64,000 nt of DNA from Candidatus Parvarchaeum sp. (GTDB taxonomy: Archaea > Nanobdellota > Nanobdellia > Parvarchaeales > Parvarchaeaceae). The translations under genes were made by a program, and so were the position numbers. Of this stretch, positions 13,678 to 52,835 are shown piece after piece. Below the pieces are notes generated by a model. The model made no database searches, had not been told where the DNA came from, and saw nothing but the letters and a program-made list of their open reading frames with translations. Each line of letters opens with the position of its first letter. The stretch's first letter is position 1. The stretch is from positions 83,791-147,790 of the forward strand of contig JBMFWF010000001.1 in the NCBI GenBank assembly GCA_049965555.1, written 5' to 3'.

Positions 13678-13982
13678 AATTGCGGTATTGAATAGCCCGT
13701 TTTTTGTCATCCCTCTGCTTTCGTTCGAAAGCTTCTCAGTTGGATGCAACAACATTCGACTAAGCGCCGGAATACCGGTTTGCACCCTGAAGGTCTGCCG
13801 TTTCATCCTCTTTTCAGCAATCAGCTTTCGCATCATCTATTTGCACTGAAAACAGGTATCGTTTCTGCTCAGTTGCCTGCCTTTTACAGCAATGCATTAC
13901 TGCACTTCAGTTTTGAAGGTGAACGGACTTCCTCCCCCAACTCATTAAAAGCCAAGGGTCTGTTGTATACAATACCGCTATT
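13678..13982 (-). ncRNA. rnpB: RNase P RNA (rnpB)
   Basis: ORF-poor, GC-enriched block. On the minus strand there is a P4 5' strand GGAGGAAGUCCGUUC (plus 13924-13935). A P4 3' strand ACAAAAAACGGGCUAUU (CR-V-like) forms 8 bp with it. A CR-II-like GAUGAAACGGCA is present. A perfect 9-bp terminal P1 helix GCGGUAUUG/CAAUACCGC closes the ends (plus 13970-13978 with 13682-13690). Length ~300 nt. Confidence 0.65.
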
Positions 13983-27900: not shown

Positions 27901-28050
27901 GTTAATCAACTGTATAAAGAGTTCATAGGTGCTGAACCTGTATCTAATTCAACCCTTGTGGCGTGGATACCTTTGGATGGAAACGCATATGATGACAGCG
28001 GGAATGGAAATACAGCTTCTCTGTCTTCTGTAAACTTTTTGTATCCCTAA
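24973..28050 (+). CDS. large secreted/surface glycoprotein with two DUF2341-like repeats and a C-terminal LamG/concanavalin-like domain
   Basis: 1025 aa; N-terminal signal/anchor helix. The ~110-aa unit SIPLLITNYQNIATPNPFQQ...SWLE...YAIWWVKIPSIPA...GEAPQLSP(I/T)YGEYDDGANVF is present twice. The motif YPPNGVMP(T/S) is also present twice. The C-terminal GKVADVQMYDSTLTLNQVNQLY is LamG-like. There are dozens of N-x-S/T sequons. Confidence 0.5.
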   Translation: MNNKAQMITIFFSLFLILAIITILGIESANLNTNENINSLIQAYNLPKLEYYNFLNVISKISTINPSNATNAIFNSTIEGIYSKLFQNLNITNQGVNTSSVVISNFGQSIPLLITNYQNIATPNPFQQMINISVSSIDNYINTTSFGQNVEFVYNNNSIIPSWLESYNSKYAIWWVKIPSIPAKGTLTIYMKFASKKTNLLNNKTTGEAPQLSPIYGEYDDGANVFLSYGDFLGTAGFDGWTPYVTSGKFTPVATSNGIEMTNDTVSEGTHILPPNSLPEEPVIVEYSWNFYGGTSPTDGEILSLFGNLNSLVGPPVVTCGGGNIASSDSVMLMVEPIGMNCSGKYIPAILDSKNNAIISTINNLPSTTPQVYTEELIISSSTTAEAGVINQSSSLSNFSQVNVPITMSGSIPYAFNFPTLMVAAGTGGGYDYNYVKWVMARAYPPNGVMPTVQILNVPPNIGYIAPLTITNHQNTATPNPFQQEVVINASRYSAIEAPNLDNIEFFYPNGTIIPSWLENGSRSSENAVYWLKIGSIPANSSINAFIGFASTNLNLFNGKTVGEAPQLSPTYGEYDDGANVFIHYGGGGNTGWSQFTYVGGTWTTANGYLQQTATGGSYSGGPTALIESASYSNTGQYILGMAFNYTTEADARVGIIAVATPTTTPDTFGYRFIGQQGSNGAGFLSFLNDEVAWVVDNTYQGAVSTPYTMVITDNAGTWSGNLYSGYEESSSPLTSLSPTSYTTANAEGATSGYVGISAAYCGSTCTTANPINVMWFYMRAYPPNGVMPSTSIGDIQNIYPFEYQYSVANFTNSTSISVPGTASTGKIWNGGHAYTLTMWVKMQHAYGRCGYPCSDLFQTNQGCTSGLEQDPYNATGYQVNLLEWNSSCGTGATAEGSPYQYVPYGKWELITGIFKYNSQGNAWIASCVDTHCTNSTWTLTEPAVYSTPATILGSQQINGKVADVQMYDSTLTLNQVNQLYKEFIGAEPVSNSTLVAWIPLDGNAYDDSGNGNTASLSSVNFLYP

Positions 28051-29171
28051 TCGTTTAAGATAAAACTTGCAGTCTTTTCTCTGTTAAAAGGGATTAAGTC
28101 ATCGTAACCCTGGCCGGTTCCTAAAAACAATATCGGTTTTTTGGTAACATAAGATATTGAAAGGACAGCTCCTCCTTTTTTGTCCACGTCTGCCTTTGAA
28201 AGAATGTTTGCATCTATCCCTATTTCTTTGTTAAATACTTCAGCCTGCTTGACTACATCATTCCCTGTCAAGGCATCACCGACAAAGATTGTAAGATCTG
28301 GTTTGCTAACTCTTTTTACCTTCTTTAATTCTTCGATTAGATTTTTGTTTATATCGCTCCTTCCTGCAGTGTCAATCAATACAACGTCTTCTTTCGCTGA
28401 ATTTGCGTGTTTTATTGCATCAAATGCAACCGCTGCCGGATCAGCACCGTATGTATGCTTTATTATTGGAACGTTTAACCTATTTGCATGTATCTCCAAT
28501 TGCTCTATTGAAGCGGCACGGAATGTGTCCCCTGCGGCTATTACCGGCTTCAACCTATTTGAAAGAAAGAATTTGCATAGCTTTGCTATTGTAGTGGTCT
28601 TTCCTGCCCCATTTACCCCTATTACTAGAATTATAAAAGGTTTCTTGTTTCTTATGTCCGATAAGAACTTTTCCTTATCATATGCAATTAAAACGCCTTC
28701 TATGCTTTCCTTTATTGCATCTGAGATGTATTTTTTGTTTCCAAAAACAGAAATATTCTCACCGACCAGCTTGGCCTTTAACTCTTTTTCTATGCCTTCA
28801 AGAACTGACAATGCAACGTTGTTTTCCAGGAGAGCTGATTTTATCTCAGAGTAAATCATTTCAACGTCTTCATCTGTTATATAATGCGATAGAATAGATC
28901 TCTTTTTTACAGGCTTTTTTTGATCGATTTCTGTTTCTTTCTTTTCTTCGTGCTTAAGCTCTAAAACTTCTTTTTTTATCTCCTGGATTTCTTCCTTTAT
29001 TTCTTTTTTATCCTCAGGTAATATCTCTTTCTTAAGTTCGGATTTATCCTGTTGCAATATCTTTTCTTCCTTTTTCTCCTCCTCTAAGATATCCTTTTCC
29101 TCTTCTTTTGAAAGTTTTTTCTGTATTGAACTTATAGAATCTTTTATTTTTTTCTTTATTAAGTCAAACAT
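28047..29171 (-). CDS. ftsY: signal recognition particle receptor FtsY
   Basis: 374 aa; NG domain motifs GVNGAGKTTT, DTAGR, and charged N-terminal region. Confidence 0.9.
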   Translation of the reverse strand: MFDLIKKKIKDSISSIQKKLSKEEEKDILEEEKKEEKILQQDKSELKKEILPEDKKEIKEEIQEIKKEVLELKHEEKKETEIDQKKPVKKRSILSHYITDEDVEMIYSEIKSALLENNVALSVLEGIEKELKAKLVGENISVFGNKKYISDAIKESIEGVLIAYDKEKFLSDIRNKKPFIILVIGVNGAGKTTTIAKLCKFFLSNRLKPVIAAGDTFRAASIEQLEIHANRLNVPIIKHTYGADPAAVAFDAIKHANSAKEDVVLIDTAGRSDINKNLIEELKKVKRVSKPDLTIFVGDALTGNDVVKQAEVFNKEIGIDANILSKADVDKKGGAVLSISYVTKKPILFLGTGQGYDDLIPFNREKTASFILND

Positions 29172-30303: not shown

Positions 30304-30733
30304 ATTTTTTCGCGGTTTCCATCGCTGCTTTGTCTGTAAATGCTATTCCTTTCGGAGTAAGCGTCCTGCCGAAATGATTCTGTACCTTTACTTTCTTAAT
30401 CAGCTCTGCCTTCTCTAATTCCTGCAGTATGTGCCTTATTATTGCACCGCTTGCAGGCTTAAAATGCTTGCCACTGTATCTATTCTTTTCCTTGTCCCCA
30501 TAGATATTTCTTAAACGATTTACTCCTATAGGTTTTTTATTAATGTACATCCTCCTCATTATGCTTGCCGCTCTAAGGTACCACCAGTTATCCTGGGAAG
30601 GCACCCTGTCTTTTGCTGAACCTGTTTTCACAAACATCGCCCATTCCGGTGGTGGCGTTAATTTTTCTTCCTCTAGCTTCTTTGCAAGTTCATTCACCAA
30701 TTCTATCTGATTTACGTCATATCCTCTTATCAT
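30287..30733 (-). CDS. rps19e: ribosomal protein S19e (eS19)
   Basis: 148 aa; PPEWAMFVKTGSAKDRVPSQDNWWYLRAASIMRRMYI and GRTLTPKG match eS19. Confidence 0.85.
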   Translation of the reverse strand: MIRGYDVNQIELVNELAKKLEEEKLTPPPEWAMFVKTGSAKDRVPSQDNWWYLRAASIMRRMYINKKPIGVNRLRNIYGDKEKNRYSGKHFKPASGAIIRHILQELEKAELIKKVKVQNHFGRTLTPKGIAFTDKAAMETAKKYGISE

Positions 30734-31010
30734 ATTTTACCTTTCTAACATTTCCACAATTTAAGCATTTATAGGTTAAAAAACCTTGCTTCAACCTAAC
30801 CCTGCAGTTAACTCCAGGTATAAGTAATCTATTACAGCTTCTACATATTAAAAACTTTTCCTCTTTTGGCAGTTTTATCTTTTTAGAGGTCAGCATTCTC
30901 TTAGCTATGTAAGCATACCTGTCTGAGAGGGCTTTATTCTTCCTTGCTTCCCTCATCAAGTAATCAAAATCCCTTTTGAATCTCTTTTCATCTTTAATAT
31001 GCACTGCCAT
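30717..31010 (-). CDS. rnp4: RNase P protein subunit Rpp21 (Rpr2)
   Basis: 97 aa; zinc ribbon CRSCNRLL...CLNCG and N-terminal basic helices typical of Rpp21. Confidence 0.8.
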   Translation of the reverse strand: MAVHIKDEKRFKRDFDYLMREARKNKALSDRYAYIAKRMLTSKKIKLPKEEKFLICRSCNRLLIPGVNCRVRLKQGFLTYKCLNCGNVRKVKYDKRI

Positions 31011-42601: not shown

Positions 42602-43122
42602 AATATTATTCCGGAAGAGGAGATGACGGAAGAACTGATATAGCAGGCGGCAGGATAGAGAAAGATGACAATGTTGTAGAACTGATTGGAAACTTGGATG
42701 AGCTAAACGCCTTCATTGGCTATGCACTCTCCAAAATAAAATACGAAGACATAAAAGCAGAGATGAGAAAAGTGGAAAGGAAGATATATTTTATAAGCGC
42801 GTATGCCTCGGGTTATTCAAAGCTTGTAAAAAGAGAAAAGATAGAGATAAATAGAGAGGATGTTAATGAACTTGAAAAAGCTATAGATTCATTTGCAAAG
42901 GAAACAAATGACATAACGAGGTTTTTGTATCCGAACGGAAGCGAAGCCGCTTGTGCAATAAATGTATGCAGAACCATAACTAGAAAGGCGGAAAGATCCG
43001 CAATAAAATGCAGCATCGAGAACAAAGAAGTGCTTGCCTATCTTAACAGGCTATCCTCTCTTTTGTTTGTTTTATCAAGGGTGGTAAACAAAAGAGACGG
43101 CTTTAGTGAGGAATTTTTTTAA
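42598..43122 (+). CDS. ATP:cob(I)alamin adenosyltransferase, PduO type
   Basis: 174 aa; N-terminal YSGRGDDGRTDI (TGDxGxT-like) and helical bundle length typical of PduO/MMAB. Confidence 0.65.
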   Translation: MKYYSGRGDDGRTDIAGGRIEKDDNVVELIGNLDELNAFIGYALSKIKYEDIKAEMRKVERKIYFISAYASGYSKLVKREKIEINREDVNELEKAIDSFAKETNDITRFLYPNGSEAACAINVCRTITRKAERSAIKCSIENKEVLAYLNRLSSLLFVLSRVVNKRDGFSEEFF

Positions 43123-43640
43123 GCTTGAGCAACTACGACCCTTGTTTGTATCCCTAATTTCTTACCCATTTTGAACGCTGCATCTTTTGCAGCTGCGATA
43201 TTTGCCTTATCAACGTGTATTTCAAATATACGCTTTCCCGCAGAAAGCCTAGCTGCCAATCCTATTGGCTTGCCGAAAGATTTCTGCATACCTGATGAGA
43301 AACGGTCAGCTCCTGCCCCGGTAGCTAGCTTATGCTCCCTTAGAACTTGGTGTGGGTAAGCCACGACCACTATGTGAAAGTTCTGATCTGTTATTCTGTC
43401 TGTAAGGTACTTATTAGCAACTATCCTTGCAGATTCTATTGCATTGTCTCTTAACTGCAATGATTTCTCAGAAAGCAGAAAGACTCTGCTGTCAAATTCT
43501 CTTTTTGGATTTCCTGAATGATACTGCGTTATTTTAGGCCTCTGTGCAATTTTTATGTAACTCTTTGTCTTGTATTTTGACTTCCTGGTATAAGGCAGTT
43601 TCAACTCCTTGTACGCTCGTCCCGGTCTTAACTTTGCCAT
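43119..43640 (-). CDS. rpl10e: ribosomal protein L10e (uL16)
   Basis: 173 aa; MAKLRPGRAYKELKLPYTRKSKYK... consensus. Confidence 0.9.
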   Translation of the reverse strand: MAKLRPGRAYKELKLPYTRKSKYKTKSYIKIAQRPKITQYHSGNPKREFDSRVFLLSEKSLQLRDNAIESARIVANKYLTDRITDQNFHIVVVAYPHQVLREHKLATGAGADRFSSGMQKSFGKPIGLAARLSAGKRIFEIHVDKANIAAAKDAAFKMGKKLGIQTRVVVAQA

Positions 43641-43641
43641 A

Positions 43642-43842
43642 TTATCTCTTATCCTCCTTGTGCTTTGAAAGGTCTATAGTTATTTTTCCTGATAATTTTA
43701 TGGGCTCCTTTATGTTTGGAAGCTTTATTTCCAGGTTATCTAGATCAAATGAAAACTTCTTGTTCCTGCCCCCAAGCATGCCTAACAGCATCTGCGGAAG
43801 CATGCCAAAAAGCTTATTGTTACTGTTATCATTCTTTTCCAT
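43642..43842 (-). CDS. small conserved-motif protein (66 aa), paralogue of 43929..44153
   Basis: Shares [FI][DN]LD[NK]LEI......K.P.KLS.KI..D.S....EDK with the upstream ORF; 2-nt gap to rpl10e. Confidence 0.35.
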   Translation of the reverse strand: MEKNDNSNNKLFGMLPQMLLGMLGGRNKKFSFDLDNLEIKLPNIKEPIKLSGKITIDLSKHKEDKR

Positions 43843-44234: not shown

Positions 44235-44329
44235 CGTCGGGGATGGGGGTTGAACCCATTAAGGCTTGCGCCAACATGCTTTCCGTTTCTGAATAGCAGG
44301 CATGCACCTTACCGTTCGGTCACCCCGAC
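44235..44329 (-). tRNA. tRNA-Ser (anticodon GCU), class II with long variable arm and a ~13-nt intron in the anticodon loop
   Basis: Reverse complement: acceptor gtcgggg/ccccgac, discriminator G, 3-bp D-stem, anticodon stem catgc/gcatg enclosing 20 nt (ctGCTa + 13-nt insert), 15-nt variable arm, T-arm atggg-ttcaacc-cccat. Confidence 0.7.
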
Positions 44330-44423
44330 TTATTACAGATTAGAGTAACTAATCTATTTTAAGTTATTGCTATTGATTATGAATTTATTTTTTACGCTTT
44401 GACGCTTGAAGGCAAAAGCAAAT

Positions 44424-44686
44424 GACAGGCCATGGCTTCGAAATAGCTATCCATATAGAGGGTAACAACATTTTCTCCTTACAGTTTACCTACAAGCACG
44501 CTTCAGCTTAATTACGGTTGCTCCCTTCCGGGCCTGGCCGGGTTCTTAAACCAAAGCATCCTATAGGGCTGTAAATCTACGATAGCTTTGCTACCATGTA
44601 TAGAGTCACTATCCCTCGGCCACGCTTCGCCGCGCCTAAAGTCCATTTGCGCTGCAGGGAGGGACTAACTCCCCAGCTAGCCTGTC
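44424..44686 (-). ncRNA. ffs: signal recognition particle RNA (7S/SRP RNA)
   Basis: GC-enriched ORF-poor block; minus strand contains the invariant helix-8 motif CCAGGCCCGGAAGGGAGCAACCG (plus 44521-44543 region) and the ends pair as a 9-bp terminal helix GACAGGCUA/UGGCCUGUC; lies next to tRNA-Ser as in many archaea. Confidence 0.75.
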
Positions 44687-44987
44687 AAATATTAGCTGAT
44701 GTTTATAGAATAAATAGGTATTACTACTACAAACGAAAAACGGCAGGAGAATTGTCAATCGACAGTATACGCAAAAGATTTTTTTAACAGTATTAAAATA
44801 GAACGTAACCTTGCAGGTAGTACTTATGTATATACCTTAAAAATGTATAATTGTTGGTCACAGTGAAATGCATGCATAAAAGTTATATGCCGCAGACCCA
44901 GTAAATCCCCCCATAAAGGTAGGGTCCAAAAAAAACGGAAATAACGTATATTCATTGTGACCCTTGTAATTAAAACAAAATGGCCTT

Positions 44988-52714: not shown

Positions 52715-52835
52715 TCCCTGCGGCCGGACTCGAACCCGCAACCTACCGGTTTCCGCAGCTGAAACTCTTCATTGCACTGAAAAACAGCACTTAGTAATTC
52801 TACAGCCGGTCGCTCTACCATTGGGCTACGCAGGG
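52715..52835 (-). tRNA. tRNA-Tyr (anticodon GUA) with ~49-nt intron
   Basis: Reverse complement folds with acceptor ccctgcg/cgcaggg. It has the archaeal/eukaryal Tyr identity pair C1:G72 and A73. The anticodon stem accgg/ccggt encloses ctGTAg plus a 49-nt insert. The T-arm is gcggg-ttcgagt-ccggc. Confidence 0.7.

Follow-up and report, generated by a model that had tools for sequence, protein, structure and literature searches.

Why is the signal recognition particle (SRP) RNA encoded at this locus so short? A sequence-only reading of the window, by which we mean the whole 64-kb stretch of DNA analysed here, had recognized an SRP (7S) RNA of about 260 nt on the minus strand, and had suggested that its shortness was due either to a reduced Alu domain or to ends that had been drawn conservatively. 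The core of the archaeal and eukaryotic SRP consists of SRP54, SRP19 and an RNA in which a clamp holds helix 6 alongside helix 8. This helix 6-helix 8 clamp is generally assumed to be present in all archaea and eukaryotes. In the RNA described here, the missing ~40-50 nt are exactly helix 6, the hairpin that binds SRP19.

The identity of the RNA was examined with an Rfam 15 scan of the whole window. RF01857 (Archaea_SRP) matched at 44423-44687 on the minus strand with 111.7 bits (E 1.6e-24; gathering score 96.5 bits), and the match spanned model positions 1-317, end to end. The presence of an SRP RNA on this strand was thus confirmed with the archaeal covariance model (CM), and the coordinates proposed earlier, 44424-44686, were correct to within one base on each side. 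With its model-defined ends the RNA is 265 nt long. Its margin over the gathering score, ~15 bits, is not high, as is to be expected with a deletion of 41 model positions. The flanks form a terminal helix of 9 bp, UGACAGGCU/GGCCUGUCA, which had already been noticed in the sequence and which the RF01857 alignment reproduces. Only one SRP-like RNA was found in the 64-kb window. The RNA and its parts are as follows.

44423..44687, minus strand: SRP (7S) RNA gene, archaeal type, without helix 6 (Rfam RF01857, MFE fold, 20 full-length orthologues, covariation)
44679..44687, minus strand: 5' strand of terminal helix 1, UGACAGGCU, pairing with 44423-44431 (three of eight tested pairs compensatory)
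44629..44677, minus strand: Alu 5' domain, with helices 2, 3 (GGGGAG/CUCCCU), UGYNR turn, helix 4 (GCGC/GCGC) and AGUCC/GGACU loop-loop pairs (Rfam Alu helices, covariation)
44474..44582, minus strand: S domain, distal helix 5 running straight into helix 8 without a three-way junction (model R1, 124.6 bits; covariation)
44550..44551, minus strand: branch point where helix 6 would be expected, with 41 model positions deleted (RF01857 alignment; helix 6 present there in the control RNAs L115 and L151)
44515..44537, minus strand: helix-8 core, symmetric loop and GGAA tetraloop, predicted site of the SRP54 M domain and predicted FtsY docking site (exact motif)
44423..44431, minus strand: 3' strand of terminal helix 1, GGCCUGUCA (RF01857 alignment, covariation)

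The helix-8 motif, on which the first recognition of the RNA had been based, was found where it had been seen. The 23-mer CCAGGCCCGGAAGGGAGCAACCG occurs a single time in the window, at 44515-44537 on the minus strand, and none of 100 dinucleotide-preserving shuffles contained a match even when three mismatches were tolerated. Helix 8 possesses the symmetric and asymmetric loops and the GNRA (here GGAA) tetraloop found in members of RF01857, and the columns of its core are invariant or nearly so among the 21 sequences of the alignment described below.

Concerning the length of the RNA, the alignment to RF01857 contains only one large gap, in which 41 consecutive model positions (~142-182) are deleted cleanly. 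In the model, these positions form the hairpin ahead of helix 8, 18 bp long and closed by a GNAR loop, which is helix 6. Both helix 6 with its GNAR tetraloop and the helix 5/6/8 three-way junction, features by which members of the family are recognized, are absent, and the RNA is therefore an atypical member of RF01857 that lacks one canonical module. In its minimum free energy (MFE) fold (-100.4 kcal/mol, z -3.5), the 265-nt RNA forms one rod without branches, and helix 5 passes straight into helix 8. As the RNA has only three hairpin loops, those of helices 3, 4 and 8, there is no other hairpin able to replace helix 6.

The Alu domain, on the other hand, is intact. Helices 2-4 can be formed from the 5' and 3' regions, as seen in the CM alignment and in covariation; in the 21-sequence alignment, these helices and the Alu pseudoknot are 97-100 % paired and display compensatory changes. 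The loop-loop contact itself covaries, with U-A replaced by C-G in two sequences. RNAalifold drew AGUCC/GGACU as a secondary helix, which we rejected in favour of the known loop-loop tertiary contact, since helices 3 and 4 in their canonical form both fit and show covariation. At the Alu turn the window RNA has UGCAG, and many relatives have UGUAG, UGUAA or UGUGA; the motif accordingly reads UGYNR here versus UGUNR. Compared with the RF01857 consensus, the C-rich side of the loop-loop pairing (AGUCC/GGACU) lies on helix 3, an arrangement opposite to that of the family.

Orthologous loci were collected with the L10e gene as bait (43119-43640, ~0.8 kb from the SRP RNA), which gave 73 genomic loci. 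The closest of them, with L10e proteins 85-98 % identical to that of the window, came from metagenome-assembled genomes (MAGs) labelled Parvarchaeota or Nanoarchaeota; identity was 92 % for Candidatus Parvarchaeum acidiphilum ARMAN-4, 85 % for ARMAN-5 and ~64-66 % for Acidifodinimicrobium. With nhmmer, 20 full-length SRP RNA orthologues of 264-270 nt were identified in Parvarchaeota loci including ARMAN-4, ARMAN-5 and Acidifodinimicrobium, always ~0.9 kb upstream of L10e (61-98 % identical to that of the window). Two further copies were incomplete at contig ends. In the DPANN loci from outside the Parvarchaeota (Woesearchaeota, Pacearchaeota and others; L031-L073), no SRP RNA adjoining L10e was found.

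The alignment of the window RNA with its 20 orthologues has 270 columns and a mean identity of 85 %. RNAalifold predicted from it the same unbranched rod, in which 46 of the 80 pairs carry compensatory changes. We also entered the canonical SRP structure by hand, with helices 1-5 and 8 and with the AGUCC/GGACU loop pairing as a pseudoknot. In this structure 97.9 % of the cells were paired, and 50 of the 86 pairs had changes on both sides; control structures slid by 1-3 columns were 38-45 % paired, with 9-16 pairs changed on both sides, and not one of 500 shuffles attained any of the observed covariation measures. The helix that runs across the expected branch site of helix 6 (columns 125-145/180-201) is itself supported by compensatory changes in 15 of its 20 pairs. 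The internal loops of helix 5 are also conserved, with an invariant GCUAUC facing GAGAAAAUG. Judging from this alignment, the form without helix 6 is fixed across the sampled Parvarchaeota.

We also scanned metagenomes with a 22-mer of the helix-8 core. The scan gave 80 loci, 20 of which were classified with Rfam; 18 carried bacterial small or large SRP RNAs and two carried archaeal ones. Since the 22-mer is shared with bacterial RNAs, it is not specific to archaea, and the scan is therefore uninformative on how widely helix 6 has been lost within the archaea. The two archaeal RNAs, L115 (333 nt) and L151 (281 nt), served as controls. Both carry the same 22-mer as the window RNA, and with the same Rfam model helix 6 is aligned in its entirety in both, with 18 bp and a GNAR loop. 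L151 is short through erosion of Alu helices 3 and 4 and keeps helix 6, the reverse of what is seen in the window RNA.

The surroundings of the RNA were examined on both sides, and the following elements were recognized.

44709..44716, minus strand: TATA-like box TATTTATT with an A-rich, BRE-like stretch just upstream (conserved spacing; putative promoter)
44411..44422, minus strand: T-rich stretch TTTGCTTTTGCC directly 3' of the RNA, a likely terminator
44235..44329, minus strand: intron-bearing tRNA-Ser(GCU) gene, separated by 93 nt from the 3' end of the SRP RNA (Rfam tRNA, 42.2 bits; ARAGORN cloverleaf)
44281..44293, minus strand: tRNA intron UUCAGAAACGGAA, 13 nt, at the canonical 37/38 position (placed by comparison with intron-less orthologues)

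In all 21 loci there is a TATA-like element (yTATTTAwy), preceded by an A-rich stretch, whose centre lies ~26 nt before the 5' end as defined by the model. This geometry suggests an archaeal BRE/TATA promoter that would belong to the SRP RNA gene itself. Downstream, the neighbour had been taken for an intron-bearing tRNA-Ser gene, and this proved to be the case. The gene scores 42.2 bits with the Rfam tRNA model, and ARAGORN, which misses it in default mode, recognizes a tRNA-Ser interrupted by an intron of 13 nt once its search admits introns; the product is a class II cloverleaf with a long variable arm. ARAGORN proposed the anticodon GGA with the intron at 32/33. We rejected this assignment, because the 14 intron-less orthologues all have the anticodon loop CUGCUAA, which makes the window gene a tRNA-Ser(GCU) with its intron at 37/38. 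A bulge-helix-bulge drawn by hand pairs nt 32-35 (CUGC) with intron nt 8-11 (ACGG) in three of four positions, a relaxed motif, and the MFE fold of the pre-tRNA did not recover the cloverleaf. The intron is limited to a sublineage resembling ARMAN-4 (the window, L002, L004, L006, L008 and L009). A tRNA-Ser gene lies downstream of the SRP RNA in 20 of the 21 loci of the lineage. In five relatives it starts only 6-11 nt 3' of the SRP RNA, and co-transcription of the two is therefore likely in these genomes. The window also encodes Rpp21, an RNase P RNA of archaeal type and tRNAs with introns, which is consistent with the ARMAN-4-like DPANN origin indicated by the L10e comparison.

Concerning the protein partners, the sequence-only reading had assigned FtsY to 28047-29171, and the domain search agrees with this.

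28047..29171, minus strand: FtsY, the SRP receptor (Pfam SRP54-type GTPase domain, E 3.4e-71, together with SRP54_N)

A gene for SRP54 was not found within the 64-kb window. SRP19 is the Pfam family PF01922, as the SRP19 sequence of M. jannaschii matches this family with an E-value of 3.7e-24, and in KEGG numbering we take it to be K03105. SRP54 and FtsY have been reported in nearly all genomes of Parvarchaeota and Micrarchaeota (Chen et al. 2018, PMC5864196). Among the KEGG orthologues (KOs) of five Acidifodinimicrobium genomes, one of which corresponds to our locus L028, K03106 (SRP54) was detected in three and K03110 (FtsY) in four, and K03105 is absent from those detected (Luo et al. 2020, PMC7779479). 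Rao et al. (PMC10134863) list PF01922 as missing from all genomes of Parvarchaeales and Jingweiarchaeales, and the marker is lacking throughout Parvarchaeum, Acidifodinimicrobium, Rehaiarchaeum, Jingweiarchaeum and Haiyanarchaeum. Their list serves only to correct completeness estimates, and neither 'SRP' nor 'signal recognition' appears in the main text of that paper. The absence of SRP19 from the lineage is published solely as an unnamed Pfam accession in a list of markers. These absences come from HMM and KO searches of incomplete MAGs, which a short, divergent SRP19 could escape. We found no SRP19 entry in the supplements of three DPANN genomics studies, and a phmmer search with one query detected no SRP19 in the window and 30 loci (~0.5 Mb, largely the same genomic region, and hence a weak test).

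The relation between the RNA module and the protein is well described. The primary binding site of SRP19 is helix 6, with which the protein 'coexists', and archaeal SRP54 can bind SRP RNA without SRP19 (PMC2905702). The same review, from 2010, reported SRP19 in all archaeal subgroups and stated of the clamp between helices 6 and 8 that it 'likely exists in all archaea'. SRP19 is described as dispensable in Haloferax volcanii, on the basis of a deletion by Yurist et al. 2007 as cited in PMC6098224 and PMC2905702.

Taking these results together, we conclude with good confidence that 44423-44687 on the minus strand encodes the SRP RNA of a Parvarchaeum-like (ARMAN-4 group) DPANN archaeon, an ultrasmall organism of acid mines; the RNA is archaeal in type, unbranched and without helix 6, and the particle is likely to consist of SRP54 and RNA. 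In such a particle, SRP54 and the 265-nt RNA alone would suffice. The M domain of SRP54 would bind directly to the universally conserved internal loops of helix 8, without pre-organization by SRP19 and helix 6, and the GGAA tetraloop would dock the complex of the SRP54 and FtsY NG-domain GTPases. The conserved internal loops of helix 5 (GCUAUC facing GAGAAAAUG) may act as the hinge and the distal GTPase-activation region, and the intact Alu domain presumably reaches the factor-binding site of the ribosome. Lacking the clamp formed by SRP19 and helix 6, the particle would resemble the Bacillus-type bacterial SRP in architecture.

Several other explanations of the locus have to be weighed against this one. 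That the region codes for protein, with the RNA match a coincidence, is hardly conceivable. Two open reading frames do exist mechanically.

44596..44787, plus strand: spurious ORF of 63 aa, antisense to the SRP RNA and its promoter (no Pfam match; not open in close relatives)
44512..44646, minus strand: ORF of 44 aa on the sense strand of the SRP RNA (no Pfam match)

Neither of the two matched a Pfam family, and their frames are not conserved in close relatives, in which no antisense frame across the RNA stays open for more than 35 codons (L008, which is ARMAN-4, and L004, L009 and L010). Substitutions across the region track base-pair covariation and not codon structure, and the CM match has an E-value of 1.6e-24. 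The plus-strand ORF, which overlaps a constrained RNA gene, had been dismissed as an artefact from the start, and we agree; the minus-strand ORF is an artefact too. We judge it highly improbable that the RNA is an ordinary archaeal SRP RNA that appears to be ~260 nt long through a reduced Alu domain or through true ends lying further out, the two explanations offered earlier. Erosion of the Alu domain is known in some archaea (PMC2905702), and it accounts for the 281 nt of L151. In the window RNA, however, helices 2-4 are retained together with their loop-loop pairing, all supported by covariation, RF01857 is matched from position 1 to 317, and helix 6 is the sole large deletion. Ends further out are opposed by the conserved TATA-like box ~26 nt from the 5' end and by the T-rich tract or tRNA-Ser gene that directly follows the 3' end. 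Neither explanation of the shortness therefore survived.

A bacterial large SRP RNA of the Bacillus type, acquired by horizontal transfer, deserves closer attention, since helix 1, the Alu domain, helices 5 and 8, the absence of helix 6 and a length of ~265 nt all match Bacteria_large_SRP (RF01854), whose architecture of terminal helix, Alu domain, helices 5 and 8 and ~260-270 nt is that of the window RNA. Bacterial large SRP RNAs in the metagenomes measured 257-266 nt, a model of the S domain built from the Parvarchaeota sequences matched bacterial SRP RNAs end to end, and the helix-8 core is identical in archaeal and bacterial RNAs. The RNA nevertheless departs from the RF01854 consensus in the terminal helix and in the Alu loops; its 9-bp terminal helix, ...GGCU/GCC..., agrees with the consensus of archaea, whereas that of bacteria is CCGUGC/GCACGG. 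Archaea_SRP was the best family in the Rfam clan competition in spite of the penalty for 41 deleted positions, a preference over RF01854 by rank and not by paired scores, as clan filtering retains only the best family. The promoter box is of the archaeal type, and a simple deletion together with the loss of SRP19 is the more parsimonious course. From these features the window RNA is probably not bacterial by transfer, and we regard such an origin as very unlikely. There is a somewhat larger, still small chance that SRP19 has been retained in a form too divergent to be detected, binding helix 8 alone or another site, or that helix 6 is supplied in trans or by a rearrangement, as in the permuted RNA of Thermoproteus. 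Absence from the HMM and KO lists of MAGs is not proof, and unusual arrangements of archaeal SRP RNA genes do exist (PMC4731332). Against a hidden SRP19, the absence is universal over five genera and two orders (PMC10134863), and the RNA lacks helix 6, the primary site of the protein (PMC2905702). Nothing points to a permutation, as the RNA of 21 genomes is a complete and continuous rod that covaries and whose 5' and 3' ends match. The window, moreover, contains only one SRP-like RNA.

We therefore return to an archaeal RNA that has lost helix 6. At the level of the lineage, it is likely that the Parvarchaeales, possibly together with the Jingweiarchaeales, have lost both SRP19 and the RNA hairpin that it binds, leaving a two-component SRP with a full Alu domain, which would be the first natural case in archaea and convergent with the Bacillus type. 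In the literature that we searched, an archaeal SRP RNA lacking helix 6 was nowhere described, nor was SRP19 loss discussed as such in DPANN archaea. An SRP RNA next to tRNA-Ser is an ordinary finding; what is new is that a lineage has probably lost helix 6 together with SRP19. We consider it moderately surprising and no more, because the reductive evolution of DPANN archaea and the dispensability of SRP19 in Haloferax make such a co-loss plausible. If true, it would constitute a natural experiment indicating that SRP54 of archaea, like that of bacteria, needs no help in using helix 8, and that the helix 6-helix 8 clamp is dispensable in vivo. It would support the laboratory finding in Haloferax, and an SRP without helix 6 would offer a minimal archaeal particle for structural work. 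It would also explain the systematic gaps in PF01922, a marker of the CheckM/GTDB type, which look like real biology rather than incompleteness. As the window RNA passes the archaeal SRP model by only ~15 bits, more divergent relatives may stay unannotated in pipelines that rely on this model.

Compared with the archaeal RNAs of RF01857, such as those of Methanocaldococcus jannaschii, Pyrococcus and Sulfolobus, the window RNA shares helix 1, Alu helices 2-4 with their loop-loop pairing, the long helix 5 and helix 8 with its CCAGGCCCGGAAGGGAGCA core, as well as a putative archaeal promoter and an archaeal host. It differs in lacking helix 6, the helix 5/6/8 junction and the adenosine clamp between helices 6 and 8, in being ~50 nt shorter, and in coming from a lineage in which SRP19 is reported as undetected. 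With the archaeal SRP RNAs that have an eroded Alu domain (some Desulfurococcales and Nitrosopumilus, PMC2905702; our control L151) it has in common that it is shortened by the loss of a module; in those RNAs helices 3/4 are gone, with helix 6 and SRP19 retained, whereas the window RNA has kept the Alu domain and lost helix 6. The SRP19 deletion in Haloferax volcanii is similar in that an archaeal SRP functions without SRP19. That case concerns a laboratory strain in which helix 6 is kept, whereas here the site on the RNA and, according to published marker lists, the protein are both missing in nature and lineage-wide.

The closest likeness in architecture is to the bacterial RNAs of RF01854, the scRNA type of Bacillus subtilis, in which the Alu-binding protein is of the HBsu type. 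The set of helices and the length of ~260-270 nt are the same, and the bacterial particle likewise has no SRP19. The differences are that the host is an archaeon, that the archaeal model fits better, and that the sequences of the terminal helix and of the Alu loops are distinct. By this analogy, the window RNA most likely works like the bacterial large SRP RNA of the Bacillus subtilis type.

In five of the genomic loci retrieved via L10e (L017, L020, L026, L028 from an Acidifodinimicrobium genome, and L029), only 6-11 nt separate the 3' end of the SRP RNA from the start of tRNA-Ser(GCU). The narrowness of this gap suggests that, in these loci, the two RNAs are transcribed as a dicistronic unit. 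The 3' end of the SRP RNA would then be set by RNase P cleavage. The window differs from these loci in that the spacer is 93 nt long and carries its own TTAAAATA box. As for RNase P itself, two components are encoded in the window.

13682-13978, minus strand: archaeal RNase P RNA (RF00373, 120.1 bits)
30717-31010, minus strand: Rpp21/Rpr2, gene for an RNase P protein subunit

The latter gene lies in a cluster comprising FtsY, prefoldin, L31e, a dsDNA-binding protein, S19e and Rpp21.

The intron of tRNA-Ser(GCU) (44281-44293, minus strand) was found only in the ARMAN-4-like sublineage (the window, L002, L004, L006, L008, which is ARMAN-4 itself, and L009) and was missing from 14 more distant orthologues. 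This confined distribution implies that the intron was either gained recently or lost several times. ARAGORN assigned a wrong anticodon (GGA) to five of the six intron-bearing copies. A further intron-bearing tRNA is present in the window.

52715-52835, minus strand: tRNA-Tyr(GTA) with a 49-nt intron (Rfam tRNA, 47.3 bits; ARAGORN with introns allowed)

Two small ORFs are located between L10e and tRNA-Ser.

43642-43842, minus strand: ORF of 66 aa
43929-44153, minus strand: ORF of 74 aa

Neither had a Pfam match. Judging from their similar C-terminal halves (...LEI...KxPxKLSxKIxxDxS...K.DK), the two ORFs look paralogous.

Concerning gene order, no SRP RNA was found near L10e in L027 and L032, Parvarchaeota-like loci with a complete 10-kb flank upstream of L10e, so not every member of the group shares the SRP RNA-tRNA-Ser-L10e synteny. 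On metagenome contigs (regions L076:532-1045, L113:8-539 and L136:3076-3556), two or three long-arm tRNAs (~90 nt) directly precede GC-rich bacterial large SRP RNAs scoring 150-190 bits, indicating that linkage between SRP RNA and class II tRNAs is not restricted to archaea.

A metagenomic archaeal SRP RNA of 281 nt (L151:8334-8614) retains an intact helix 6 but has lost nearly all of Alu helices 3 and 4 to erosion (from 19 to 4 nt and from 26 to 6 nt, respectively). In the window SRP RNA, the loops of these helices contain complementary segments for the tertiary contact.

44662-44666 and 44640-44644, minus strand: AGUCC (helix 3 loop) and GGACU (helix 4 loop), columns 22-26 and 45-49 of alignment A1 (the window SRP RNA with 20 full-length Parvarchaeota orthologues)

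One pair of this contact covaries in A1, changing from U-A to C-G in L017 and L019. Compared with both the Rfam archaeal consensus (GGC/GCC) and the Rfam bacterial large consensus (AGCGG/CCGCU), the orientation is reversed in the window SRP RNA, with the C-rich strand on helix 3.
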